Positions 9,173-21,876 of a stretch of DNA of 64,000 bases are shown here, one piece after another. Both the position numbers and the translations under genes were made by a program. The stretch's first letter is position 1, and every line of letters begins with the position of its first letter. Source of the stretch: Escherichia phage arall; the sequence record MN850584.1; one strand, given 5' to 3'. Under the pieces are notes generated by a model. The model made no database searches. It saw only the letters and a program-made list of their open reading frames with translations, and had not been told where the DNA came from.

Positions 9173-11248
9173 ATGAAACAGGCTATTTTTACTGTAACTC
9201 GAAATACGAGAGTAAATGCCAGTTCATTCAGCTATAAGACCGTCGATGGAACGGCGGTCGCTGGTAGAGATTATGTAGCTAAACAGGGAACAGTAACGTT
9301 CCCTTCTGATGCAGATTCTGCTACTGTAGTGGTTGATGTATATGAACGTCCGGCAAACTCTTTAGATCTTTATTTTACTCTTGAGATTACTAGCATAAGT
9401 CAAAATAACATGATGATCAACGAAGAAATTCGTTGTGTTATTACGACTGATCAATCGAATACAACCCCGCTAACTTGGCCTGTTGTGAAGTCTAGAATGT
9501 TTGATCCTAAGTTTTGGACAATAGATTCTCAAGCAACAGAAAGTTGTTCTATTATCTCTAATGGTGATTCTTTCACAGCAAGAATGGTTAATAGGACAGT
9601 GGCTGGTCTTGCTGGGATTATTTGGTCAACTTACGATAAATATGATCACAAAGGATTAGGCTACCAAGAACATTCTGACTTAAGTAAAGAGAAACTTTGG
9701 TTTAAAATGGAACTTAGTCAAGGTGTTCCTGGATTAAAAGAAGAAAAATTAATACCATCCTTAACAGTGACACTGAAGGATGAAACAGTTCATTATGTAT
9801 CTCTAAACTTTTATGCAGAAGAAGTTTCAGAAGATGGTAAGACAGCAACAATCAAACTAGATTTCTCAAATTTAAAATCTGGGCCAGAAAATGATATTGT
9901 TGTTGACACTACACAGATAGATAATATGTTCTTCTCCTTGATCTCCACAAGGTATCAAGAAATTGAAGATATTATTCCTGTAGACAATGTGGATCTTTCC
10001 TTTAAGTTTACCATACTGGAGCCTGATACTGGTTACAGTATGATGAATATGGGTAATTTAAATGTTCCAGCACACACCATAAGAATGTGTACATCTTATG
10101 ATGATATGTATAACCTGACCCCAGAGCGAGTTATTTCTAACACCTACAGATTAGGTTATAGGGATATGATTAACCATTATAATGGTATGTCACACTATTA
10201 TCAGTTTAGTTGGGATGCTGGTTCTAATAAATGGGTTTTGAATAGAACAGAATATTTAAACCCAGCAACAGAAGCATGGTTTGATAATTTCCACGCTAAT
10301 GCAAAAGCTATGGGCTACACAGTAATGAACTCCTTAAGTTTTGAACTTATGAGTACAGTGTGTCCTGTAGAATGGGTTCAACATACTTGGAATGATGATC
10401 TGGCTGCTACAGGTTATGAGCCACCAAGTTATGTTTTATCTCCTTCAATTGATGAAGGGATGAATTATTTACAAGGTGTAATAAATAAGATAGCTTCTAT
10501 ATCCGCTGCCAATGATCTTCCTGTTATTATTCAGGTTGGTGAACCGTGGTGGTGGTATAACACAGCTACCAATCTACCGTGTATTTATGATTATACAACC
10601 AAAGTTGCATTTAATAATGAAACTGGATTATATGCACAAGATGTTGGTACAGTTAAGAATTATAAAACTGGTACACCATATGATGAATATTATGCATTCC
10701 TATCTAAAACATTAGGACTGCGTGTTGCTAAATTTGCAACAGATACTAGATTAGCATATCCTGGGGCTAAAGTTACATTATTACCATTTGTGCCATCCAT
10801 TTTAGGTAACGGTATGATGGAGTTTGTTAACTTCCCTAAAGATTATTATATCCCAGAAAACTTTGACTTTTATTGTTCAGAATGTTATGACTGGTTGTTG
10901 GAAGGTCAGATGGAAAGATCTTTCGACGCTATTAAAATACCTAATGAGCAACTAGGTTTTAGTTATGATAAGATACATTATCTTGCAGGGTTTGTTCCAG
11001 ATGCAACTCTAGCACCATTATATGGCTTTGATCCTGAATCAGACTACAGAACATATTTGTGGAAAATGATTATAGGTAATATTGTATTGAATGACCAGAA
11101 GTTTGTTGGTTTGTATCAATACATATGGGCTTATCCACAAATTATGGCAGATTCATTAACTGTTCTTAATTCAAAATCCCAAGTTTTTTATATGGGTAAC
11201 GTACCTCTGAATGTCTTTTTACAAGATACAGTATATGTTTCTTCTTAA
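9173..11248 (+). CDS. structural protein with N-terminal Calx-beta-like domain
   Basis: 691 aa; FSYKTVDGTAVAGRDYVAKQGTVTFPSDADSATVVVDV matches the Calx-beta signature (DGTA..G.DY … g.v.F). Confidence 0.45.
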   Translation: MKQAIFTVTRNTRVNASSFSYKTVDGTAVAGRDYVAKQGTVTFPSDADSATVVVDVYERPANSLDLYFTLEITSISQNNMMINEEIRCVITTDQSNTTPLTWPVVKSRMFDPKFWTIDSQATESCSIISNGDSFTARMVNRTVAGLAGIIWSTYDKYDHKGLGYQEHSDLSKEKLWFKMELSQGVPGLKEEKLIPSLTVTLKDETVHYVSLNFYAEEVSEDGKTATIKLDFSNLKSGPENDIVVDTTQIDNMFFSLISTRYQEIEDIIPVDNVDLSFKFTILEPDTGYSMMNMGNLNVPAHTIRMCTSYDDMYNLTPERVISNTYRLGYRDMINHYNGMSHYYQFSWDAGSNKWVLNRTEYLNPATEAWFDNFHANAKAMGYTVMNSLSFELMSTVCPVEWVQHTWNDDLAATGYEPPSYVLSPSIDEGMNYLQGVINKIASISAANDLPVIIQVGEPWWWYNTATNLPCIYDYTTKVAFNNETGLYAQDVGTVKNYKTGTPYDEYYAFLSKTLGLRVAKFATDTRLAYPGAKVTLLPFVPSILGNGMMEFVNFPKDYYIPENFDFYCSECYDWLLEGQMERSFDAIKIPNEQLGFSYDKIHYLAGFVPDATLAPLYGFDPESDYRTYLWKMIIGNIVLNDQKFVGLYQYIWAYPQIMADSLTVLNSKSQVFYMGNVPLNVFLQDTVYVSS

Positions 11249-11259
11249 GGATCTCTAGT

Positions 11260-11505
11260 ATGAGAAAATTTTTAATAGGTATGTTTTGTACATATCCTGA
11301 TAATAAAGTCAGTTCTACTAAAGTTTGGAATGCTATTGGTATGATTGTTATGTCCAGTATGTTTATTTATTTGGGAATTGATAAAGAAATTCCTGAATGG
11401 ATGGGCTGGGCTTTTGTTTTTATGATCACACCATCCAGACTAATGAAGAATTTAATAGATTTACGTTGGGGCAGATCACCTGCCCCTGATAAGGAGGATA
11501 ACTAA
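11260..11505 (+). CDS. small membrane protein
   Basis: 81 aa; hydrophobic segment IGMIVMSSMFIYLGI, second WMGWAFVFMITP. Confidence 0.4.
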   Translation: MRKFLIGMFCTYPDNKVSSTKVWNAIGMIVMSSMFIYLGIDKEIPEWMGWAFVFMITPSRLMKNLIDLRWGRSPAPDKEDN

Positions 11506-12992
11506 TGGCAGATTATGGTTTAACAGATGCTGGTTTTGTCATTCCAACGTTTGATGATATTCTAAATAATTATATGACAGCATTGAAAAACACTTTCGGT
11601 GCAGATACAGCTACATCTGAAGATACTGTCTTTGGTCAACTGTTTCGTATTATTGCATATACAGATTACACCCTTTGGGAAGGTATGCAAGGTGTTTACA
11701 ATACCCAAACCTTAGATGGTGCAGAAGGTATTTACCTTGATGAAATTTTCTCTAAAAGGGGTTTTTATCGTAAAGCTGCTTCTGCTGGTAGTGGTTATGC
11801 TTATGTTAAATCTAACAATAAGGCAGCTTGGACTTATGAGCTAAGTACAGATGTTTATTTTAACGCCGATAACGATTTGACATATTATGTCAGTGCACCA
11901 ACAATGTTGAATGCTAAGATTGGAGCATATACCATTTCTAAAGCAAACGCAACAGCTTCTGGTGAAACTTCTATTACTTTCTACATTCAAAGTGCTATTG
12001 ATGGTGGTCTTAACAGTAAAACACTAAGTCCTAGCAATACAAACTTTATTTTAGATCTCACGAATTTCATTAAAGCTAACGTATCAACAACAGATCGTGC
12101 TTTAGTATGGAATGATGCTAGTAATGTTTACATGGGTTATAATCCAGAAGATAATGTTAACCCAATAGGTCTAGTAACACCAGTGAAATTTTATGCATCT
12201 ATTGCAATAGGTACAAAATGGAGTGAAATTCCAGTTACGTGTTCAGACGTTGGTTATAATCCAGTAGGTACAGAAAGTATCACAGGTATTTCTTCAACGT
12301 TTACAGGCTTTTTAGATACAGGTAACTTCTATCCATTCTCTCCAGGTACAGATGTTGAAACAGATGCAGAATTCCGTTCTCGTTTCAATGATAATATGGA
12401 TGAAGCTAATGCTGCTACTCGTGCTGCTATTGTTAAAGCTCTGCTACTGACAGATGGTGTGACAAAGGTTAAGATTTATGATAACCCTACATTACATGAT
12501 CAGGAACATGCTCCAGCTATGACATTCCAGACTATTGTGTATGGTGGTACAGCAGAAGAAGTTGCACAGGTTATTTATAATACTAAGCCTATTAACACCC
12601 TAACCTATGGTACAACAGCAATTACTATCGTAACAGAAGATGGTGGTCAAGAAGTAATTCGTTTTTCTCCTGGTGACAATGCTGAATATTCACTTAAACT
12701 AGTATATCAAACTGGCAATGGTAGTGTGTTAAGTACAACAGAAAGAGAAAATATTGTTTCTGCTCTTTCAAATCTACAGGCTTATTTTGAGTTAGGGTCA
12801 ACAGTAACTAACGATCAGATAAAAGGTGTAATTTATTCTGCACTTGCGTTCGGACGCTTGACTTCTCTCCGTGTTTATGTTAAACTTAATACTGAGGATG
12901 ACAGTAAATATAATGAGGGAGATATCACTCCAGCGTACAATGTTGTACCATCCTTTGACCTTGATAATATTTCCTACGAGTACGGAGTCTAA
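11505..12992 (+). CDS. baseplate J-like wedge protein (by position)
   Basis: 495 aa; ATGA overlap with upstream gene; precedes a gpI/XkdU-like gene and the tail fiber. Confidence 0.35.
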   Translation: MADYGLTDAGFVIPTFDDILNNYMTALKNTFGADTATSEDTVFGQLFRIIAYTDYTLWEGMQGVYNTQTLDGAEGIYLDEIFSKRGFYRKAASAGSGYAYVKSNNKAAWTYELSTDVYFNADNDLTYYVSAPTMLNAKIGAYTISKANATASGETSITFYIQSAIDGGLNSKTLSPSNTNFILDLTNFIKANVSTTDRALVWNDASNVYMGYNPEDNVNPIGLVTPVKFYASIAIGTKWSEIPVTCSDVGYNPVGTESITGISSTFTGFLDTGNFYPFSPGTDVETDAEFRSRFNDNMDEANAATRAAIVKALLLTDGVTKVKIYDNPTLHDQEHAPAMTFQTIVYGGTAEEVAQVIYNTKPINTLTYGTTAITIVTEDGGQEVIRFSPGDNAEYSLKLVYQTGNGSVLSTTERENIVSALSNLQAYFELGSTVTNDQIKGVIYSALAFGRLTSLRVYVKLNTEDDSKYNEGDITPAYNVVPSFDLDNISYEYGV

Positions 12993-15191: not shown

Positions 15192-15533
15192 ATGGAGCTA
15201 ACAGAAGTATGGGATATCGCTAAAGAGGCGATTATCCCTCTTATTGGCGTAATCTGGGTGGTCTTCAAACAGAAGATAGATGATATGGCAAGTGATTTGG
15301 ATAAAATGGAAGACAAATACCGCGAACTAGAAAAGAAGTTGGTGTTTGTTGAATCCACTTATGCTACCAAAGCAGAACTTGCTCAAATGCTTAACCAGAT
15401 CAACTCTACATTAATGGCAAATAATACTGCCTTAGAACAGAAGATTGAAAAAATAATGGATTTAAAAAATGCTCCTGTTCAATTAATGTTAGAGGAGATT
15501 ACAAAGCGCACACAAAGTAAGGACAAAAATTAA
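15192..15533 (+). CDS. membrane-anchored coiled-coil protein (possible lysis-associated XhlA-like or fiber accessory)
   Basis: 113 aa; one TM segment (AIIPLIGVIWVVF) followed by coiled coil. Confidence 0.35.
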   Translation: MELTEVWDIAKEAIIPLIGVIWVVFKQKIDDMASDLDKMEDKYRELEKKLVFVESTYATKAELAQMLNQINSTLMANNTALEQKIEKIMDLKNAPVQLMLEEITKRTQSKDKN

Positions 15534-17947
15534 TGGCGAATTTTCCAACATATCCTGCTACGACACTAGAACAAGGTGTTGATCTGGTTATATTCTCGTC
15601 TAACCAGATGCATGATGTTATTAATGGGGATGCTACAGCAACTGTAGAAACCGAAACAGGTTTAATACCTACACTGCGTAAAGCACTTGTTGATAACTTC
15701 TTCTTTAAGAGTCCTGTTGCTTGGTCAGCAGGATCAACTGAAACTGTATTTAACCAGTTACGTTATTTTGAAAACGGTATCTTGAGTGGGTACTATTATG
15801 CCCCATCTGCCACTACTGCGAACCCTGTACCTATGCAGGGCACACCTGTAGGGGACAGTAACTGGACTCTGTACGCTCTTAAAACTGAACAGTTAGCTTC
15901 AGATGTATATCCTTGGTATTTTAAAGGTGCTACAGGATATGAAACAGAAATCAGTCCTCCTTATATCTTTGATAATGCTATTGTCACCATTAACGGTGTA
16001 ATTCAGATTCAAGGTGAAGCATTTACTATCAAAGATAGTAAAATTATTCTGGCAGAACCATTAGGTTTAGATCCGTCTACTGGTCTACCTAACAAATTGT
16101 TTGCTTTTATTGGTAAAACAACAGCCTCTACTTCTTACGTAGAGAAAAACCTTTTGTCATCTACCACTGGTGCAGCAATGGTTGGTCTTCCATCTGGAGG
16201 CAACCTGTTACAAGCTCAATACTTTGTAACGCCTGAGCAGTTTGGTGCAATTGGTGATGGAGTTACCGATGATACTCAAGCAATTTTAAAAACTATCACT
16301 TTCGCTAACACGAATAACATTCAAGTACGTGCGGATAAGAATTATAGATTCACAAGCTCAATTGCTATGTCTGGTATTCGTTGGTATGGTGGTACATTCA
16401 CTGGTAACGGTGGAACAATGATTTCTACTGTGTCCTGTTGGATGGAAAACGTTCGCTTTGAAAAATGTTATGTTAAGATGTTAGGTGGCGATTGCCGATT
16501 CTATCGTAATATCTTCTCCAACGCAACATCTACAGCAGCATTCTTAATGCAAACAATGACAAGTGAAGGTACGTTGGACTTCAGTTACAACGAAATGTAT
16601 GGTTGTAAATATGCGATCCTACAACAAGGTACTGGAGAAGTAATGACCTATGGGCGTTACTCTAACAACTATATTCACGATATCAAAGGTGATGCTATTG
16701 AACTTAACGTAGTTCAAAAACACTACACTGAAGGTTTGATTATCGAGAATAACCACATTGCTAACGTAGATGCTTCTGGACAAGGGGCAAACTGGGGTAT
16801 TGGTATTGGTGTAGCAGGTAGTGGCCCATATGGTGTTGATGTTCCTGATTCACAATATGTACGTAACTTCAGTATCGTTGGGAATAGGGTTTACAATTGC
16901 CGTCAATGTTTACACGTTGAAATGGGTAAAAACTTCACGATACGTGATAATGAAGTTTATCCTAACACAGCAGTTTCAACAGGTACAGGTTTAACTACTT
17001 GTGGTGTTGCATTATACGGATGCCAAGATTTTGAAGTTGATGGTTTAACTGGTTATCTGCTTAATGATCCGTCTGTTTCAACACGCATGGTCTTTATTGA
17101 TTGGGGTGTTAACAGTGGAAGATATGCGGGGCCACCAATTAACTTTACAATTAAGAATTTGGATATTCCAGAATCTTCAATTGAGATTGCAACATCTGGA
17201 TCAGATGCTTGGGAAAACTCTACAATTGTTAGTAACATCAATTGTAATGTTTTTAAATGGCGTGGGCTACCATCTAGCTCTACTTTTAATAATATTCGTT
17301 GCCGTAGTATTGACTTTATTGGTCAACACGGAAGCGGAGAAGGAAGTGGTGGCGGTTTCTATACTCGCAGCCAATTCACGTATATGAAGTGGGTAGGATG
17401 TACAGCACTTAGCGGAGATGAAACAACAGTTTCTTTTGCTAAAATCTACACTGATCGTTGCGATCAGGTTGGAAATAACTTTGGTGTTCCAACTGCTGTT
17501 GATGGTACAGGTCATCGTGGGCCAGTTTTAACTACTATTTCTGAACAATATTTTACAGCTTATGATGAATTCCCAGGTGGGCGTGAATTCCCTACTGGAA
17601 CAGTTATTCATTGTGCAAGCGGTAAAAAACATGTTGTTACAGTAGGTGGTGCTTTCTTCAGTGCCAACGAGAAAATAAAAGCAACTGTTACAGGTCAAAC
17701 CTATCTACAGTCTAATGCTTTAAACTGGGCTAGTAATGGCTACGCTAAAGCAGCAGGTACTAAGATTGTTATTCCAGGTGCAGGTGCAAATGGCGGCGAT
17801 CTTGTGACAACTATAGCACGTGCTACATACGTGACAAATAGTTTGTACACAATAGATATTGCAGATCCAATTGTAACACCTACAGCAGAGAATACACAAA
17901 TTAAAGCTCTGAATCCTGTTACTTTTGTTACTGTCAACAATGCTTAA
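15533..17947 (+). CDS. tailspike / depolymerase-like protein
   Basis: 804 aa; Gly/Asn-rich turn-rich stretches (NNHIANVDASGQGANWGIGIGVAGSG) suggest a beta-helix; followed by a terminator. Confidence 0.45.
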   Translation: MANFPTYPATTLEQGVDLVIFSSNQMHDVINGDATATVETETGLIPTLRKALVDNFFFKSPVAWSAGSTETVFNQLRYFENGILSGYYYAPSATTANPVPMQGTPVGDSNWTLYALKTEQLASDVYPWYFKGATGYETEISPPYIFDNAIVTINGVIQIQGEAFTIKDSKIILAEPLGLDPSTGLPNKLFAFIGKTTASTSYVEKNLLSSTTGAAMVGLPSGGNLLQAQYFVTPEQFGAIGDGVTDDTQAILKTITFANTNNIQVRADKNYRFTSSIAMSGIRWYGGTFTGNGGTMISTVSCWMENVRFEKCYVKMLGGDCRFYRNIFSNATSTAAFLMQTMTSEGTLDFSYNEMYGCKYAILQQGTGEVMTYGRYSNNYIHDIKGDAIELNVVQKHYTEGLIIENNHIANVDASGQGANWGIGIGVAGSGPYGVDVPDSQYVRNFSIVGNRVYNCRQCLHVEMGKNFTIRDNEVYPNTAVSTGTGLTTCGVALYGCQDFEVDGLTGYLLNDPSVSTRMVFIDWGVNSGRYAGPPINFTIKNLDIPESSIEIATSGSDAWENSTIVSNINCNVFKWRGLPSSSTFNNIRCRSIDFIGQHGSGEGSGGGFYTRSQFTYMKWVGCTALSGDETTVSFAKIYTDRCDQVGNNFGVPTAVDGTGHRGPVLTTISEQYFTAYDEFPGGREFPTGTVIHCASGKKHVVTVGGAFFSANEKIKATVTGQTYLQSNALNWASNGYAKAAGTKIVIPGAGANGGDLVTTIARATYVTNSLYTIDIADPIVTPTAENTQIKALNPVTFVTVNNA

Positions 17948-17951
17948 TTAA

Positions 17952-17975
17952 AAAGGGGCGAAAGCCCCTTTATAA
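17952..17975 (+). terminator. rho-independent terminator
   Basis: AAAGGGGC-GAAA-GCCCCTTT hairpin followed by A/T-rich tract. Confidence 0.6.
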
Positions 17976-17988
17976 AAGGAGTAGTAAA

Positions 17989-19950
17989 GTGATTTTAACA
18001 CGTCCAAATAGTGCCATTGCAGACATGGTAGAGTCTCGCTATAGAAAGCGTAGAAGTTTTGCAAGTGGTTTTACCTTAAGAGATGCTCGTGAAGCATTGC
18101 TCTTTGAAACTGACGGTAACTACTATCAGTGGAAAGGTTCTCTACCTAAAGTTGTACCTGCTAACTCTACTCCTACATCTACTGGAGGGATTTCAGATAC
18201 AGCTTGGAAAAATGTGGGTAATGCAGATGACATTGCTCAAATAGAATCAGAATTAGATGCTATTGAAGCTGAAATTGAAGATCTTAGAGAATCCATCCCA
18301 GAAGCTGGTAAATCAGCTTACCAAATTGCCGTAGACAATGGTTTCCAAGGTACTGAGACACAGTGGTTGGCTTCTTTAAAAGGTGATCCAGGTGCTCCAT
18401 TAAAGCTACTAGGGACGCTATCTAATACCAACCAATTACCTACAACTGGAAACAATGCAGGGGATGCATGGATTGTAGGCGAGAATATGTATGCTTGGGA
18501 TGGTACTGCTTGGAGAAAAGTAAACTCACAGGGGCCAGAAGGTAAATCTGCTTATGAAGTATGGCTTGCAGCAGGAAACGAAGGTACAGAACTAGATTAT
18601 CTTGCCGCAATTAAAGGTGATAAAGGGGAGCCTGGCTCAGAGGGGCCACAAGGTGTGCCAGGTAATAATGCTAATGGTTTTGATTACCAAGGCGCAGCTA
18701 ATTCCGTTTCAGATCTTCCTTCTGCATCTCCTGGAAACACATCTCAAGCATGGAGTATTGGTACATATCTATACGTGTCAAACGGTGTAGAATGGATCAA
18801 TATGGGCGCTATAGTGGGGCCAAAAGGAGATAAAGGCGACAAAGGAGATAAGGGTAACACTGGTGATTCAGCTTATCAAGTCTGGTTAAATGCTGGTAAC
18901 GTTGGTACTATTGACGAATATATTGCCTCTCTGAAAGGAGAAAAAGGTGATAAGGGAGACAAGGGTGATCAAGGTGCACAGGGTATACAAGGCTTGACGG
19001 GGCCAACTGGTGCAGGGTTGACCATTATTGATATTCTGACTAACACTTCTGAACTACCACAAACTGGAGAAGATGGTGATGGTTATCTAATCAATAATGA
19101 ACTTTGGGTCTGGTTGCAAGGAGCCACAGAGTGGACAAATGTTGGTCGTTTAGCTGGTACTCCAATCACTGCAAAAGGACACGTTGTGTCTGCAAGTGCG
19201 CTTCCTCCTACAGCCAATTACGGTGATGCTTATCTGACGGAAGATACAGGTCATCTTTACATTTACACCTATAATGAACTAACTCAAACTGCTGAATATG
19301 TAGATATGGGTAGTTTGAAAGGTGATAAGGGTGAAAAAGGTGACGCTGGTACTAACGGTACAGACGGTGCAACTTGGATTGTTAAAACAACAGATCCAAT
19401 CTCTAGTGATGGTAAACAAGGTGATTATGCCTTTAATATCTCCACTGGCGAGGTGTTCTTAAAAACATCTGCAACTATCTGGATTTCTCAAGGTACACTA
19501 CCTAGTATCACAGATGCACCTAGTGATGGTAAGACTTATGCTCGTAAAGATGGAGCATGGGAAGAACTCACTAATTCTGTAGATGGTCAAGATATAGTTC
19601 CAACAAAAGTAACAACTAATTTTATAGAGGTTACAGCATATACTAACAATTCTGTTACAGGGGACTGGACACCTCCAGGAACACATAACATGAATGTGTT
19701 GAATCTTACTGGTAACTCTACTATAAAAGCATGGCCTGGTGTCGAAGATAGCACAAAACCTAAACCATTCTCTGCAATAGTTTATCTTATCCAAGATGCC
19801 ACTGGAGGTCGTACTGTTACTTTAGATCCATCTTACAAAGTAATTGGTTCCAGTGATATTAATACAAATCCTAACGGAGTAACAATACTACAACTAACAT
19901 ATTGTGGTGTTGGCGATTACGTGGATGCTATTGTTGCTAAACGCACATAA
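17989..19950 (+). CDS. tail fiber protein with collagen-like repeats
   Basis: 653 aa; GTG start after AAGGAG; G-X-Y runs (GPKGDKGDKGDKGNTG, GEKGDKGDKGDQGAQGIQGLTGPTGAG, GDKGEKGDAGTNGTDG) interleaved with three copies of a ~30-aa SAYQ…LKG module. Confidence 0.55.
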   Translation: MILTRPNSAIADMVESRYRKRRSFASGFTLRDAREALLFETDGNYYQWKGSLPKVVPANSTPTSTGGISDTAWKNVGNADDIAQIESELDAIEAEIEDLRESIPEAGKSAYQIAVDNGFQGTETQWLASLKGDPGAPLKLLGTLSNTNQLPTTGNNAGDAWIVGENMYAWDGTAWRKVNSQGPEGKSAYEVWLAAGNEGTELDYLAAIKGDKGEPGSEGPQGVPGNNANGFDYQGAANSVSDLPSASPGNTSQAWSIGTYLYVSNGVEWINMGAIVGPKGDKGDKGDKGNTGDSAYQVWLNAGNVGTIDEYIASLKGEKGDKGDKGDQGAQGIQGLTGPTGAGLTIIDILTNTSELPQTGEDGDGYLINNELWVWLQGATEWTNVGRLAGTPITAKGHVVSASALPPTANYGDAYLTEDTGHLYIYTYNELTQTAEYVDMGSLKGDKGEKGDAGTNGTDGATWIVKTTDPISSDGKQGDYAFNISTGEVFLKTSATIWISQGTLPSITDAPSDGKTYARKDGAWEELTNSVDGQDIVPTKVTTNFIEVTAYTNNSVTGDWTPPGTHNMNVLNLTGNSTIKAWPGVEDSTKPKPFSAIVYLIQDATGGRTVTLDPSYKVIGSSDINTNPNGVTILQLTYCGVGDYVDAIVAKRT

Positions 19951-19952
19951 TC

Positions 19953-19978
19953 AAAGCCCCTTCGGGGGCTTATTATTT
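19953..19978 (+). terminator. rho-independent terminator
   Basis: AAAGCCCC-TTCG-GGGGCTT hairpin followed by ATTATTT. Confidence 0.6.
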
Positions 19979-19989
19979 AAGGAGATTAA

Positions 19990-21876
19990 ATGTATCCTAT
20001 TCCTTTATTTATGTCAACAACATCAGCTTCAGTAGTAACAGCTACATCTATAACTACTTCCTCTATTGGTATTGCAATAGTTGGTGGTAAAAAACAACTG
20101 ACATACACAGTTACACCGGAAGATGGTGCATTATTTGATATAGCTTTTTCATCTTCAGATAATACCAAAATGGTTATAGATAATAGTGGTATGATGGAGT
20201 TTGTTGCCGAAGGTAGTTTTGATGCAATAATGACAGCTAAAAATAATTTAGGTGCTGTCTTAACTGATCAATCTGGTGGTTATGCTTCAGAATTAAGTGT
20301 GTACACTGAAAGTCTATCGGCTATGGATGTAGGCACTACTCAACAGTTGGTTGCTACAATCAGTCCAGAAGGTGCTAAAGACCTTCCAGATATGGTAATT
20401 ACATACACCACAACAGATCCAGAAGTAGCTACTGTAAGCCCTACAGGGTTAATAACTGCTCTTAAAGATGGCGGTTGCCGTATAGGTTGTACTGCAACGT
20501 ATCAAGGAACAGTTGTGGCCTCTGATAGGTCTTATTTAGGTGTTAATGCTATTCCTGTTATTTCTAATGTAACAGCCGTGGCAAACAGTTATGGAGACGT
20601 TCGTGTTGCTTGGGATGTAACTGATTCGCTAGACGGTGATACTTATACTGTAGAAGTATTAGATTTAAGTAATAATAGTGTTCAGTGGACTACAACAACC
20701 ACGAATACTCATGCTTACTTTGATATCTCTGACTCTATTCCTCTTTATGGGTTTGCTCCAACATACCTTAAAATTAGCGTTAAGAGCACCAAAGCAGCAG
20801 CCGTTATCTTTAATAACTCAATAGCTACAGATGATTCGTTCATTAAAGAAGTTATTGTCTTTGCTGGACAAGATAACGTAAATGCACACTTTACAGAACT
20901 ATCTGGTGCAAATAAAGCAGCAATGAGTAGCACAACAGCCCGTAATGCATATGCTACGCAACGTGGTTTAGCAAATGCTGAAGTTCTTCCGTTAAATACA
21001 GCTTCTGGATCATCAGCAGCAGATAAATATGCTGACGATAAAGCTGGAACAGGTACACCAGACAACTACTGGTATGATCTGGATAACACAGCAGATGGGC
21101 CATGCTTAACTAATTTTATCACTAAAGTCACACCTTATGCAAGTAAGGTTAAAGCGATTATTTGGGGACAAGGTGAAAATGATGCTGTATCAGCATCTTC
21201 AACTGTTGCAGGTAGGTACAGTAACACTACACGTTACCATGATGCTACGATAGCCATCTTTGATAAGATGCGTACAATAGTTCCTGCTTCTCAAGCAAAA
21301 ATTGTTTGGCAGATCCTAGGACGTTCTTATTTATATGGTGTAGAAGTTAATGGTGTGGATTGGCAGAAGTACAGAAATGTACAAAGAACCATCTCTACAG
21401 CACGTGATGATGTTATCATTGGTTCTTGGGTAGATGGTGCTGAACGTTACAGTGGTTATGTTTATGAAGAAGGTATTGATGGTCGTATCCATTATATTTC
21501 TTCTGTATACCAAACAGCAGCTACAAAACTTGCTAAATCGGCAGCAGACGGTACAGACTTAACATCAGCGTCACCTGTTTGGGTTGATATGTCTGTTCCA
21601 ACAGGAGGAGCCGCTGTAAGACAAGCTAACCAAGATGCAATTATCTCTTGGGAACCAGCAGGATATACTAAACATTACTTCCGAAATGTAAACGTCCTCA
21701 CAGCAGCAACTCTTACAGAACAAACCCTGGATACTAACACTTACACATTTACTTATGCAGATCAGGTTGAACAATATGGATTTGCAGCAGGTACAACAGC
21801 GTTTGATGTTGCACACTATGATGCTGATAATGACGTGTTATCACCTCTTGTCAGATTTACAGTCAATGTTACATAA
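19990..21876 (+). CDS. receptor-binding/tail protein with putative carbohydrate-esterase (SASA/DUF303-like) domain
   Basis: 628 aa; AAGGAG RBS; N-terminal Thr/Ser-rich Ig-like region; VFAGQDNVNAHF and IIWGQGENDA resemble the GQSN / WxQGE blocks of sialate O-acetylesterase-like domains. Confidence 0.45.
   Translation: MYPIPLFMSTTSASVVTATSITTSSIGIAIVGGKKQLTYTVTPEDGALFDIAFSSSDNTKMVIDNSGMMEFVAEGSFDAIMTAKNNLGAVLTDQSGGYASELSVYTESLSAMDVGTTQQLVATISPEGAKDLPDMVITYTTTDPEVATVSPTGLITALKDGGCRIGCTATYQGTVVASDRSYLGVNAIPVISNVTAVANSYGDVRVAWDVTDSLDGDTYTVEVLDLSNNSVQWTTTTTNTHAYFDISDSIPLYGFAPTYLKISVKSTKAAAVIFNNSIATDDSFIKEVIVFAGQDNVNAHFTELSGANKAAMSSTTARNAYATQRGLANAEVLPLNTASGSSAADKYADDKAGTGTPDNYWYDLDNTADGPCLTNFITKVTPYASKVKAIIWGQGENDAVSASSTVAGRYSNTTRYHDATIAIFDKMRTIVPASQAKIVWQILGRSYLYGVEVNGVDWQKYRNVQRTISTARDDVIIGSWVDGAERYSGYVYEEGIDGRIHYISSVYQTAATKLAKSAADGTDLTSASPVWVDMSVPTGGAAVRQANQDAIISWEPAGYTKHYFRNVNVLTAATLTEQTLDTNTYTFTYADQVEQYGFAAGTTAFDVAHYDADNDVLSPLVRFTVNVT

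Follow-up and report, generated by a model that had tools for sequence, protein, structure and literature searches.

Repeated modules and short collagen-like tracts in a phi92 gp151-type side fibre protein of Escherichia phage arall

The window analysed here – the whole stretch of 64,000 nucleotides from Escherichia phage arall (sequence record MN850584.1) – contains, at 17989..19950, an open reading frame with a GTG start that encodes a protein of 653 residues; this gene and all features described below lie on the + strand. The gene is the orthologue of phi92 gene 151, whose product is a side (or lateral) tail fibre containing collagen-like regions. The two share 99.4% nucleotide identity over 100% of the gene and 98.6% amino-acid identity at equal length, and eight substitutions separate the arall protein from phi92 gp151 (CBY99580.1); against phi92, nonsynonymous and synonymous changes in the gene stand at 8:3. 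Membership of the gp151 orthologous group (phrog_15437, 'tail fiber protein') is backed both by an end-to-end match (residues 1–653 of 656, 1349 bits) and by conserved gene position, with the colanidase tailspike gp150 on one side and a Big_2 tail protein on the other, in the same order as in phi92 and PD06. The orthologues in Justusliebigvirus and Phapecoctavirus keep these neighbours, and are called either tail fibre or 'lateral tail fiber protein with type I collagen domain'; about 55 genomes already annotate the gene as a tail fibre, some of them adding 'with type I collagen domain'. It is, in other words, the known and catalogued side-fibre protein gp151 of phi92-like E. coli phages, and its description as a tail fibre in the first-pass annotation agrees with the phi92 identity, the gp150 and Big_2 neighbours and the N-terminal domain. 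The two phages do differ in other genes: the phi92 endosialidase gene is apparently missing in arall, and the place that gp152 and gp153 occupy in the phi92 record is taken by an intact gene.

A GC-rich stem-loop (GGGGC-GAAA-GCCCC, 17955..17968), followed by TTTAT, can be read from the sequence in the interval that separates the stop codon of gp150 from the ribosome-binding site of gp151; the terminator scan did not call it, because its T run is short. The ribosome-binding site itself, AGGAG (17977..17981), stands 7 nt upstream of the GTG and is annotated identically in the phi92 record. Directly 3' of the gp151 stop codon lies a terminator-like hairpin, AAGCCCCTTCGGGGGCTT, with a T-rich tail (19954..19971).

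The protein begins with an anchor domain (aa 11–77, 18019..18219) that belongs to the TSP1/gp66-type Pfam family Tail_spike_N (PF18668), scoring 75.6 bits against a cut-off of 25 (E 3.3e-21) and covering profile positions 3–69 of 70. Its matches among PDB sequences include the N-terminal regions of CBA120 TSP1, TSP3 and TSP4 and of G7C gp63.1. A short coiled coil follows (aa 79–102, 18223..18294), with a heptad pattern of Ile and Leu read from the sequence at positions 82, 85, 89, 92, 96, 99 and 103. It forms a single helix in the AlphaFold2 model – a monomer built from 14 sequences, with a mean pLDDT of 58 – and the phi92 record likewise notes a coiled-coil central domain.

Next come three copies of a 26-residue module, here called SAY modules, with the consensus GxSAYxxAxxxGFxGTxxxWLxSLKG. 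Module 1, GKSAYQIAVDNGFQGTETQWLASLKG (aa 107–132, 18307..18384), is of the subtype A8/F13/W20, with predicted helices at 110–116 and 123–131 (pLDDT ~50–60). Module 2, GKSAYEVWLAAGNEGTELDYLAAIKG (aa 185–210, 18541..18618; predicted helices 188–194 and 201–209), and module 3, GDSAYQVWLNAGNVGTIDEYIASLKG (aa 292–317, 18862..18939; predicted helices 295–301 and 308–316), are both of the subtype W8/N13/Y20. Pairwise, the copies share 50–62% amino-acid identity and reach local BLOSUM62 scores of 62–86 against shuffle means of 17–18 (z 11.6–15.6; none of 2000 shuffles attains the real scores), and elsewhere in the protein no segment scores higher than 29 with any of the three. The first-pass annotation had reported a thrice-repeated module of about 30 residues: all three strings that it quoted are present and the repeat is real, at a length of 26 residues rather than 30.

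A wider sample of 385 unique ungapped instances from 120 homologues shows conserved hydrophobic positions, with Gly at –3 in 325 instances and at +3 in 350. Positions 8, 13 and 20 switch together, being Ala/aromatic/Trp in 307 of the 385 and Trp/Asn/Tyr or Phe in 77 – counts made on related sequences, for which chi-square values overstate independence – as expected of side chains packed on each other. This pattern suggests that the module behaves as a folded unit within the Gly-X-Y lattice, and the AlphaFold2 monomer model predicts two helices for each copy at a pLDDT of only 50–67.

The SAY module is very widespread, occurring in 27,563 cluster representatives. In other proteins, SAY modules are found head to tail at a spacing of 25–28 residues, in up to 38 copies and with almost no collagen between them; these collagen-poor tandem stacks, together with the first gp151 module and its mere two triplets, argue that it is a fibre-building unit in its own right and not only a clamp for collagen. 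The libraries searched hold neither a dedicated Pfam family nor a solved structure for it, and a SAY profile built from 81 instances found nothing better than E 0.23 among all PDB sequences; matches to a helicase and to HincII, at that value or worse, are due to chance. The upper fibre gp68 of staphylococcal phage 80alpha (6v8i) was considered as a relative on a phmmer E-value of 0.28 and set aside, the SAY profile having failed to confirm it. A search of the mostly open-access literature returned no published description of the module, which does not prove that none exists.

The only Pfam or NCBIfam names that the modules attracted were weak DUF2934 matches and sub-threshold matches to streptococcal and Legionella collagen-like adhesins, the latter because of the Gly-X-Y tracts. 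For DUF2934 (PF11154, cut-off 22 bits), gp151 itself gives no match at E up to 1, its orthologue P0002 reaches 14.8 bits, and 7 of 81 single SAY modules match, at E 0.08 at best. The likeness lies in a short motif, AY..W/A...G...G...W, and may be a superficial one, since DUF2934 is found in bacteria as a stand-alone domain of unknown function; proteins with many SAY modules pass the threshold by summing weak matches.

The SAY modules are set in frame among four Gly-X-Y runs of at least three triplets. Tract 1 (six triplets, aa 210–227, 18616..18669) has the same length in all 13 orthologues, and tract 3 (nine triplets, aa 317–343, 18937..19017) has 8–10 triplets in them. The two variable spacers are tract 2, GPKGDKGDKGDKGNTGDS (six triplets, aa 277–294, 18817..18870), within which TRF finds a 9-nt tandem array at 18823–18848, and tract 4 (six triplets, aa 445–462, 19321..19374), the most variable of all: in orthologues at ~60% identity they range, in three-residue steps, over 4–10 triplets (12–30 residues) and 3–13 triplets (9–39 residues), respectively. 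Pfam Collagen (PF01391) is matched over three stretches at 33.3 bits against a cut-off of 27.2, best at residues 317–341. All four tracts are entered through LKG-D/E or IKG-D, and KGD or KGE stands at 9 of the 23 internal Y-Gly-X steps; in viral collagen-like proteins generally, KGD makes up 13% of triplets and is enriched beside interruptions (PMC11923368). The tracts are unstructured in the AlphaFold2 monomer (pLDDT <50), as expected of a single chain. The earlier picture, in which every module is followed by a run rich in GDKGDK, needs correction: module 1 is followed by no more than the two triplets GDPGAP, the GDKGDKGDK run of residues 277–294 stands before module 3, and the fourth tract comes after another kind of repeat.

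That second internal repeat, overlooked in the first-pass annotation, is a beta module of about 45 residues (LPxxG..GDAW.V...YAWDG..W..V) with four clear copies, whose pairwise z-scores are 3.7–9.2 and all of which an iterated HMM recovers at E 1e-12 to 1e-18. They lie at aa 137–181 (18397..18531; E 1.1e-18; strands at pLDDT 73–84), 230–275 (18676..18813; E 9.3e-15; strands at pLDDT 74–80), 343–388 (19015..19152; E 7.6e-16) and 392–443 (19162..19317; E 1.6e-12), and the AlphaFold2 model gives each of them three or four strands. The last copy ends in ...MGSLKG, the junction motif that also closes the SAY modules, and one DNA repeat family, D2, has four copies, one at each LKG-G junction. Self-comparison of the protein thus reveals significant internal repeats – SAY and beta modules alike – beyond the Gly-X-Y tracts. 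A beta-rich segment further on (aa 463–502, 19375..19494), with strands in the model and deleted in the orthologue P0014, resembles a divergent fifth beta module; we do not count it as one, given z-scores of 0.1–2.4 against modules 1–4 and its absence from the iterated HMM results.

Beyond this segment lies a hairpin, ITDAPSDGKTYARKDGAWEEL (aa 503–530, 19495..19578), predicted as a beta hairpin and similar to the foldon. Residues 506–529 score 19.3 bits (E 0.0013) against the Fibritin_C/foldon family (PF07921), whose threshold is 21; the orthologue P0002 reaches 18.0 bits and the more distant P0027 36.9 bits. Among PDB sequences, the foldon chains of T4 fibritin and various foldon fusions match weakly, and Foldseek gives local matches of 42–50% identity to foldon-tagged constructs. 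With a foldon-like motif and predicted hairpin, it probably works like a foldon, though it falls short of the family threshold. There is a motif look-alike between the beta module (LP..G..GDAY...W) and the foldon (IPEAPRDGQAY..KDGEW). The idea that the beta modules are duplicated foldons is not supported, given pairwise z-scores of at most 2.7 and an hhalign probability of 3.4%, obtained with 396 beta-module instances against 15 foldon-like segments.

The chain ends in a beta-sandwich knob (aa 531–653, 19579..19947; pLDDT 75–94), presumed from its position alone to be a receptor-binding distal head. It is 48–50% identical to the C-termini of other rV5-like phage fibre proteins; a word-index homologue search with the C-terminal 154 residues returned two proteins only, missed the protein's own cluster and contributed little to the alignment behind the knob model. 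In the PDB, only one fold matches the knob significantly, that of the Pa223 capsid spike (9ny6_C; E 3.5e-4, TM 0.46). From monomer models, Foldseek aligns the distal shaft plus knob with this protein, Pa223 gp52, at E 8e-5 and 3.5e-4 (probability 0.99–1.00, TM 0.46, rmsd 10.5 Å, 11% identity). In a fold search with the whole protein, where a mean model pLDDT of 58 makes only local matches meaningful, the Pa223 and N-domain matches were retained and the others disregarded.

Taken together, these features make it probable, in our judgement, that gp151, the product of a phi92-like myophage (Justusliebigvirus), forms a side fibre of beads-on-a-string design – most likely a homotrimer – in which folded modules clamp short, salt-bridge-rich collagen helices. 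The N-terminal Tail_spike_N domain would dock the fibre to the baseplate or the fibre network, and the 24-residue coiled coil would start the trimer. The shaft would then alternate three trimeric elements: the 26-residue SAY modules, predicted as helix-turn-helix units in frame inside the Gly-X-Y lattice; collagen-like helices of 6–9 triplets; and the ~45-residue beta modules. The foldon-like hairpin and the knob would close the fibre and probably touch the cell surface. The collagen segments alone would be too short and too proline-poor to stay together, and what keeps them in register may be the folded modules that flank them on either side, together with interchain Lys-Gly-Asp/Glu salt bridges. 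Rather more tentatively, the SAY module, which ranks among the most frequent components of collagen-like fibres in phages and prophages and has two covarying core variants, may represent an undescribed trimeric fibre fold, and could serve as a natural clamp at which very short, hydroxyproline-free collagen helices nucleate and come into register.

The same arrangement might be read differently, with the SAY modules acting mainly as hinges – interruptions of the collagen helix that leave the fibre jointed and flexible rather than stabilised. The modules do form 24-residue breaks in the Gly-X-Y lattice, triple helices are thought to kink at interruptions (PMC11923368), and the collagen shafts of contractile-injection-system fibres have been suggested to confer flexibility (PMC12923769). 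Yet the strong conservation of the module and its covarying core triad speak against a loose linker and for a defined fold, and tandem SAY arrays exist without collagen, so that we regard a predominantly hinge-like role as unlikely. The clamp and the hinge are not mutually exclusive: a folded node can double as a joint.

Under the clamp reading, fibre length would be tuned in one-triplet steps (~0.86 nm) through slippage of imperfect 9-nt units, a process nearly confined to tracts 2 and 4, while the proximal half and the module count would remain fixed. In eight of the 55 near-identical records, an additional 9-nt unit, AAAGGTGAG, follows window position 19335; it lengthens tract 4 by one triplet and departs from its neighbouring unit at 1 nt. 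Among the orthologues, 51 of 75 gap columns fall in Gly-X-Y tracts 2–4, all as multiples of three residues, and residues 1–276 are free of indels. The earlier proposal that repeat number varies between isolates, changing fibre length, is therefore borne out for triplets, both in the close records and in the orthologues, but not for modules, of which all 13 orthologues have three.

The accompanying description of the modules as recombination-prone fares worse. Their DNA is 56–64% identical with no in-register exact run longer than 8 nt, and on these grounds we rejected the idea that the module copies recombine homologously. Anywhere in the gene, exact direct repeats extend to 14 nt at most. The 9-nt arrays found by TRF comprise 2–4 copies matched at 75–90%, and slippage of such imperfect units seems to suit the indels better than unequal crossing-over between modules. 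A rapidly varying locus, where differences in module or repeat number between isolates reset fibre length over short periods, would draw on the extra triplet in the eight records, on the broad ranges of tracts 2 and 4 and on the arrays themselves. We consider it improbable, since only two length alleles (653 and 656 residues) occur among the 55 phage records and cluster members listed, and the 15 members listed for the phAPEC8-type cluster, one partial sequence excepted, are uniformly 674 residues long; the long near-perfect repeats and frequent length variants in close isolates that characterise contingency repeats were not found.

As to where the fibre sits, a 2026 cryo-EM study of phi92 did not place gp151 in the virion map, and the AlphaFold3 model of the protein could not be fitted to the density of fibre II (PMC13450770). 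This failure to fit tail fibre density could be taken to mean that gp151 belongs to the head or neck, as a whisker or capsid spike, and not to the baseplate, as could the combination of foldon-like hairpin and coiled coil, which recalls T4 fibritin, the Pa223 capsid spike as best and sole significant fold match, and the phi92 record, where 'potential capsid binding domain' is the label given to the N-terminal domain. We think the chances of this low: the N-terminal domain is homologous to tailspike anchors that attach to tails or adaptors (CBA120 TSPs, G7C gp63.1 and K1-type podophage spikes), the gene lies inside the tail-fibre cluster, and the Pa223 match covers the distal part, not the capsid-binding N-terminus. 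Pa223 gp52 (PDB 9NY6), whose knob is a TNF-fold by its authors' description, is a capsid decoration that shares 10–11% identity with gp151, is anchored by another kind of N-terminus and has neither collagen nor SAY modules. Finally, it is highly improbable that the SAY modules are repeated ligand-binding units (for glycans, for example) giving avidity along the shaft: they are repeated and their surface positions 2, 6, 10, 11, 14, 17–19 and 22 vary, but each has just 26 residues, the conserved ones being accounted for by Gly turns and the hydrophobic core, and they are nearly always embedded in Gly-X-Y and resemble no carbohydrate-binding family.

The proposed fibre with clamped collagen segments has several counterparts. 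In the EPclA–D side fibres of EHEC prophages, too, a coiled coil and non-collagen trimerization modules cap one or more Gly-X-Y domains; these fibres look beaded in EM and differ in collagen length by multiples of three residues; their flanking modules are, however, PfN, Pf2 and PfC rather than Tail_spike_N, SAY, beta module and knob, and their collagen domains are much longer (spanning at least 27–322 residues, compared with 18–27 in gp151) (Ghosh et al. 2012, PMC3368898). Streptococcal phage Tal extensions similarly alternate short collagen-like linkers with small repeated '3-beta domains', a likeness of architecture; these are siphophage tail tips with carbohydrate-binding modules, and no SAY-type helical module is described in them (Goulet et al. 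2022, PMC9437275). The T4 fibritin foldon and collagen-foldon fusions (PDB 1NAY) share with gp151 residues 505–524 the motif xPxAPxDGxxYxRKDGxW, and in both cases a small trimerization hairpin adjoins fibrous segments, but the gp151 hairpin stands between the beta segment and the knob, not at a chain end or directly after collagen.

The gene itself is of small significance, being well conserved, already annotated and of a repeat architecture that is ordinary for phage collagen fibres. Of wider use is the finding that its length changes are confined to two distal Gly-X-Y spacers and proceed in single-triplet steps, which tells engineers where to cut in order to alter fibre reach without breaking assembly. 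The SAY module, for its part, is a very common, compact and apparently self-folding unit that flanks short collagen helices; since the fibre genes that carry it are labelled inconsistently – as tail fibre, tail spike, tail assembly protein or hypothetical – it deserves a family entry in the domain databases. Should it prove to be a trimerization clamp, it may lend itself to holding together short recombinant collagen helices, much as the T4 foldon is used.

The collagen-like fibre gene of arall is an ortholog of phi92 gene 151 (99.4% identical DNA, full length), and its product is here called gp151. It is a 653-aa ORF at 17989-19950 on the + strand, exactly where the first-pass annotation had placed it, with a GTG start and the ribosome-binding site AGGAG 7 nt upstream. 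Two GC-rich stem-loops, each followed by T-rich sequence, bracket the gene – GGGGC-GAAA-GCCCC at 17955-17968 on its 5' side and AAGCCCC-TTCG-GGGGCTT at 19954-19971 on its 3' side – and might act within the late operon as weak terminators or to stabilise RNA. Fifty-five phage records, mostly Justusliebigvirus phages of E. coli, carry the gene at 97-99% DNA identity, labelled by depositors as tail fibre, tail spike, tail assembly protein, hypothetical protein or 'lateral tail fiber protein with type I collagen domain'. The 'Campylobacter phages' A150, A145, C3 and A110a (MG065639, MG065645, MG065656 and MG065689) hold it at 98.6% identity; their genomes are 146 kb and Justusliebigvirus-like, and their stated host, C. 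jejuni, looks doubtful. Eight of the 11 nucleotide differences from phi92 gene 151 change amino acids, four of these in beta module 4 (aa 398, 400, 429 and 431) and one in the C-terminal knob (aa 627) – a ratio that, on such small numbers, seems unlike strong purifying selection.

The protein begins with a Tail_spike_N domain (PF18668; aa 11-77, E 3.3e-21), its N-terminus matching N-terminal regions of CBA120 TSP1, TSP3 and TSP4 and of G7C gp63.1 among PDB sequences, followed by a single helix in which I/L residues keep a clean heptad spacing (aa 79-102; sequence and AlphaFold2 model). The region aa 107-462 combines Gly-X-Y tracts, counted from at least three triplets up, with two repeated modules: the 26-residue SAY module – named here for its conserved Ser-Ala-Tyr – and a beta module of ~45 residues. 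Its first half consists of SAY module 1 (aa 107-132), two triplets, beta module 1 (137-181), SAY module 2 (185-210), tract 1 (210-227, six triplets) and beta module 2 (230-275); its second half of tract 2 (277-294, six triplets), SAY module 3 (292-317), tract 3 (317-343, nine triplets), beta modules 3 (343-388) and 4 (392-443) and tract 4 (445-462, six triplets). There follow a beta-rich segment (463-502, AlphaFold2 model), a foldon-like hairpin (ITDAPSDGKTYARKDGAWEEL, 503-530) and a beta-sandwich knob (531-653, AlphaFold2 models). With Pfam Fibritin_C the hairpin reaches 19.3 bits, just below the cut-off of 21, and in orthologs its motif, IPEAPxDGxxYxRKDGxW, recalls the T4 foldon.

In the AlphaFold2 monomer model (14 sequences, mean pLDDT 58.5), each SAY module forms two short helices (pLDDT 50-67) and each beta module three or four strands (70-84), while the Gly-X-Y tracts are without structure, as expected for one chain. 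The knob is predicted with confidence (75-92), and aa 497-653 modelled separately reach a mean of 81.9. The C-terminal ~100 aa (aa 557-653, window 19657-19947) are 48-50% identical to the C-terminal ends of other fibre proteins from rV5-like phages, such as the MaxBurger 'lateral tail fiber protein with glycosidase domain', and PHROG 4549 has matches in this C-terminus as well as in aa 9-116 (window 15557-15880) of the tailspike gp150; together, these likenesses suggest that domains have been shuffled between fibre genes in such phages.

The first-pass annotation had reported a thrice-repeated module, and this observation is borne out with solid statistics: the strings it quoted are the three SAY modules, which share 50-62% pairwise identity over 26 residues and align with local scores of 62-86 against 17-18 for shuffled sequences (z 11.6-15.6), a level reached by none of 2000 shuffles. 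Because these scores lie so far above the shuffles, the self-alignment it had proposed as a refutation, with nothing but Gly-X-Y tracts repeating, is not what is seen. Scanning the rest of gp151 for further SAY copies yielded no segment above 29 against any copy. The annotation overlooked the beta family (LPxxGxxGDAYxV...LYxWxGxxWxxxG), of which there are four clear copies with pairwise z of 3.7-9.2; an iterated HMM recovers exactly these four (E 1e-12 to 1e-18). Nor is each module followed by a GDK-rich run: no more than two triplets (GDPGAP) come after module 1, the GDKGDKGDK run precedes SAY module 3 rather than following any module, and the fourth tract comes after a module of a different kind.

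From 385 unique ungapped instances, the SAY consensus is G-x-S-A-Y-x-x-A-x-x-x-G-F-x-G-T-x-x-x-W-L-x-S-L-K-G. A Gly lies three residues ahead of its first Gly in 325 of the 385 and three residues past its last in 350, so that the module amounts to a structured insertion of 24 residues that keeps the phase of the collagen lattice. Positions 8, 13 and 20 covary, being Ala/aromatic/Trp in 307 instances (as in gp151 module 1) and Trp/Asn/Tyr-Phe in 77 (as in modules 2 and 3); this is the pattern expected of three mutually packing side chains, though the instances are related and the statistics overstate their independence.

Beyond the observed domain order, module phase in the Gly-X-Y lattice, conserved module core and indel positions, we infer the working of the fibre from established knowledge. 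Collagen helices require a trimerization nucleus, those of six to nine triplets without hydroxyproline are unstable alone, and short collagen peptides are greatly stabilised by foldon fusion; Lys at Y, then Gly, then Asp/Glu at X gives interchain salt bridges. A collagen-foldon fusion (1NAY) is among the weak PDB matches of gp151, KGD or KGE occupies 9/23 internal Y-Gly-X steps, and LKG-D/E or IKG-D marks the entry to each tract. The stability rules and the KGD/KGE steps point to a trimeric shaft whose SAY and beta modules would act as folded nodes and clamp short collagen rods held by salt bridges. At 0.286 nm per residue, the 27 triplets would add roughly 23 nm, and the two distal Gly-X-Y spacers would set the reach in 0.86-nm steps. 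The SAY nodes may chiefly be hinges, a role compatible with clamping. [quoted passage not shown] There are close precedents: the collagen-like tail fibres of E. coli prophages carry capping trimerization modules and vary in collagen length by multiples of three (PMC3368898), and in streptococcal phage fibres linkers of collagen-like sequence and small beta domains alternate (PMC9437275).

The locus may alternatively be a fast-varying contingency repeat, a reading to which both DNA and population data are contrary. Among close relatives, repeat number varies hardly at all: of 54 full-length records (a 55th, VivaForever, is interrupted by the record end), 46 match over 1962 nt and eight over 1971 nt (two records each of PD06 and PHB05, with PD211, SD2, ECGD1 and EC.P2), and the corresponding two lengths, 653 and 656 aa, recur in metagenomic members of the same 90% cluster. 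The extra 9 nt, AAAGGTGAG, are inserted after window position 19335, giving tract 4 one more triplet, and differ by one base from the adjoining unit AAAGGTGAC, as expected of slipped duplication. Across 13 orthologs at ~60% identity, phAPEC8 type included, the predicted variation in repeat number between isolates applies to Gly-X-Y triplets but not to SAY modules, of which every ortholog has three; the first-pass interpretation was half right. SAY and beta module lengths are constant, residues 1-276 show zero indels and tract 1 always has six triplets; tracts 2, 3 and 4 range over 12-30, 23-29 and 9-39 residues in steps of three and hold 51 of the 75 gapped alignment columns, and the 463-502 segment is missing from one ortholog. 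Remoter relatives with the same N-terminal domain type have one to three SAY modules and four to seven tracts, so module gain and loss is real over long times. The modules had also been called recombination-prone; with copies 56-64% identical in DNA and a longest in-register exact run of 8 nt, they do not appear to be recombination substrates. Gene-wide, no exact direct repeat exceeds 14 nt, in agreement with DNA repeat-family analysis, and the 9-nt arrays in the tracts (2-4 units, 75-90% match) would suffice for occasional slippage, far from a contingency locus.

As in phi92, the gene is preceded by that of gp150 (15533-17947), a tailspike that degrades colanic acid, and followed by that of a tail protein with Big_2 domains. 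This position, together with the tailspike-type N-terminal anchor, speaks against gp151 being a head or neck fibre instead of a baseplate fibre, as it may be given its foldon-like hairpin and its resemblance to Pa223. The downstream gene (19990-21876, +) is one intact 628-aa ORF, as in PD06, with Big_2 domains and a weak sialate-O-acetylesterase-like region; the absence of 226 nt and the presence of 2 additional nt in the phi92 reference (L002 14002-15664) divide its counterpart there into gp152 and gp153, the remainder being 99.2% identical. By ORF sizes and order, 9173-12992 holds equivalents of phi92 gp141 (958 aa) and gp145 (495 aa). Only ~256 nt separate a 691-aa ORF (gp142 of phi92 has 719 aa) from the gp145 equivalent, so that, judging by ORF coordinates, the window appears to lack the endosialidase gene, gp143, which in phi92 has 2757 nt.

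That SAY modules bind ligands is unlikely, as they have only 26 residues and their conserved positions are turns and core. Their distribution is wide. A three-copy HMM finds 0-19 copies per protein among the 120 best homologs, and an 81-instance profile retrieves 27,563 cluster representatives at E <= 0.001 (10,588 at E <= 1e-10) from 1.84 billion proteins, with a maximum of 38 copies in P0123, a 2782-aa protein from a Clostridia metagenome bin. This protein, P0027 (19 copies) and P0040 consist mostly of SAY modules head to tail, at 25-28-residue spacing and with few Gly-X-Y triplets; such stacks indicate that the module can probably build a fibre alone. The profile has no match in the PDB (best E 0.23), and Pfam has no dedicated family: DUF2934 alone is touched, weakly, passing its threshold solely through summed matches in proteins with many copies. 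For the gp151 orthologs, the precomputed Pfam annotation, which draws on a newer release, names Tail_spike_N, Collagen and the C-terminal domain PF26209 and nothing else, and no description of the module was found in the literature searched. The SAY module is thus extremely common; it appears not to have been curated, and the libraries searched contain no solved structure of it. gp151 is an ordinary phage fibre gene, already annotated and of known design principle, and its modest interest resides in the SAY module alone.
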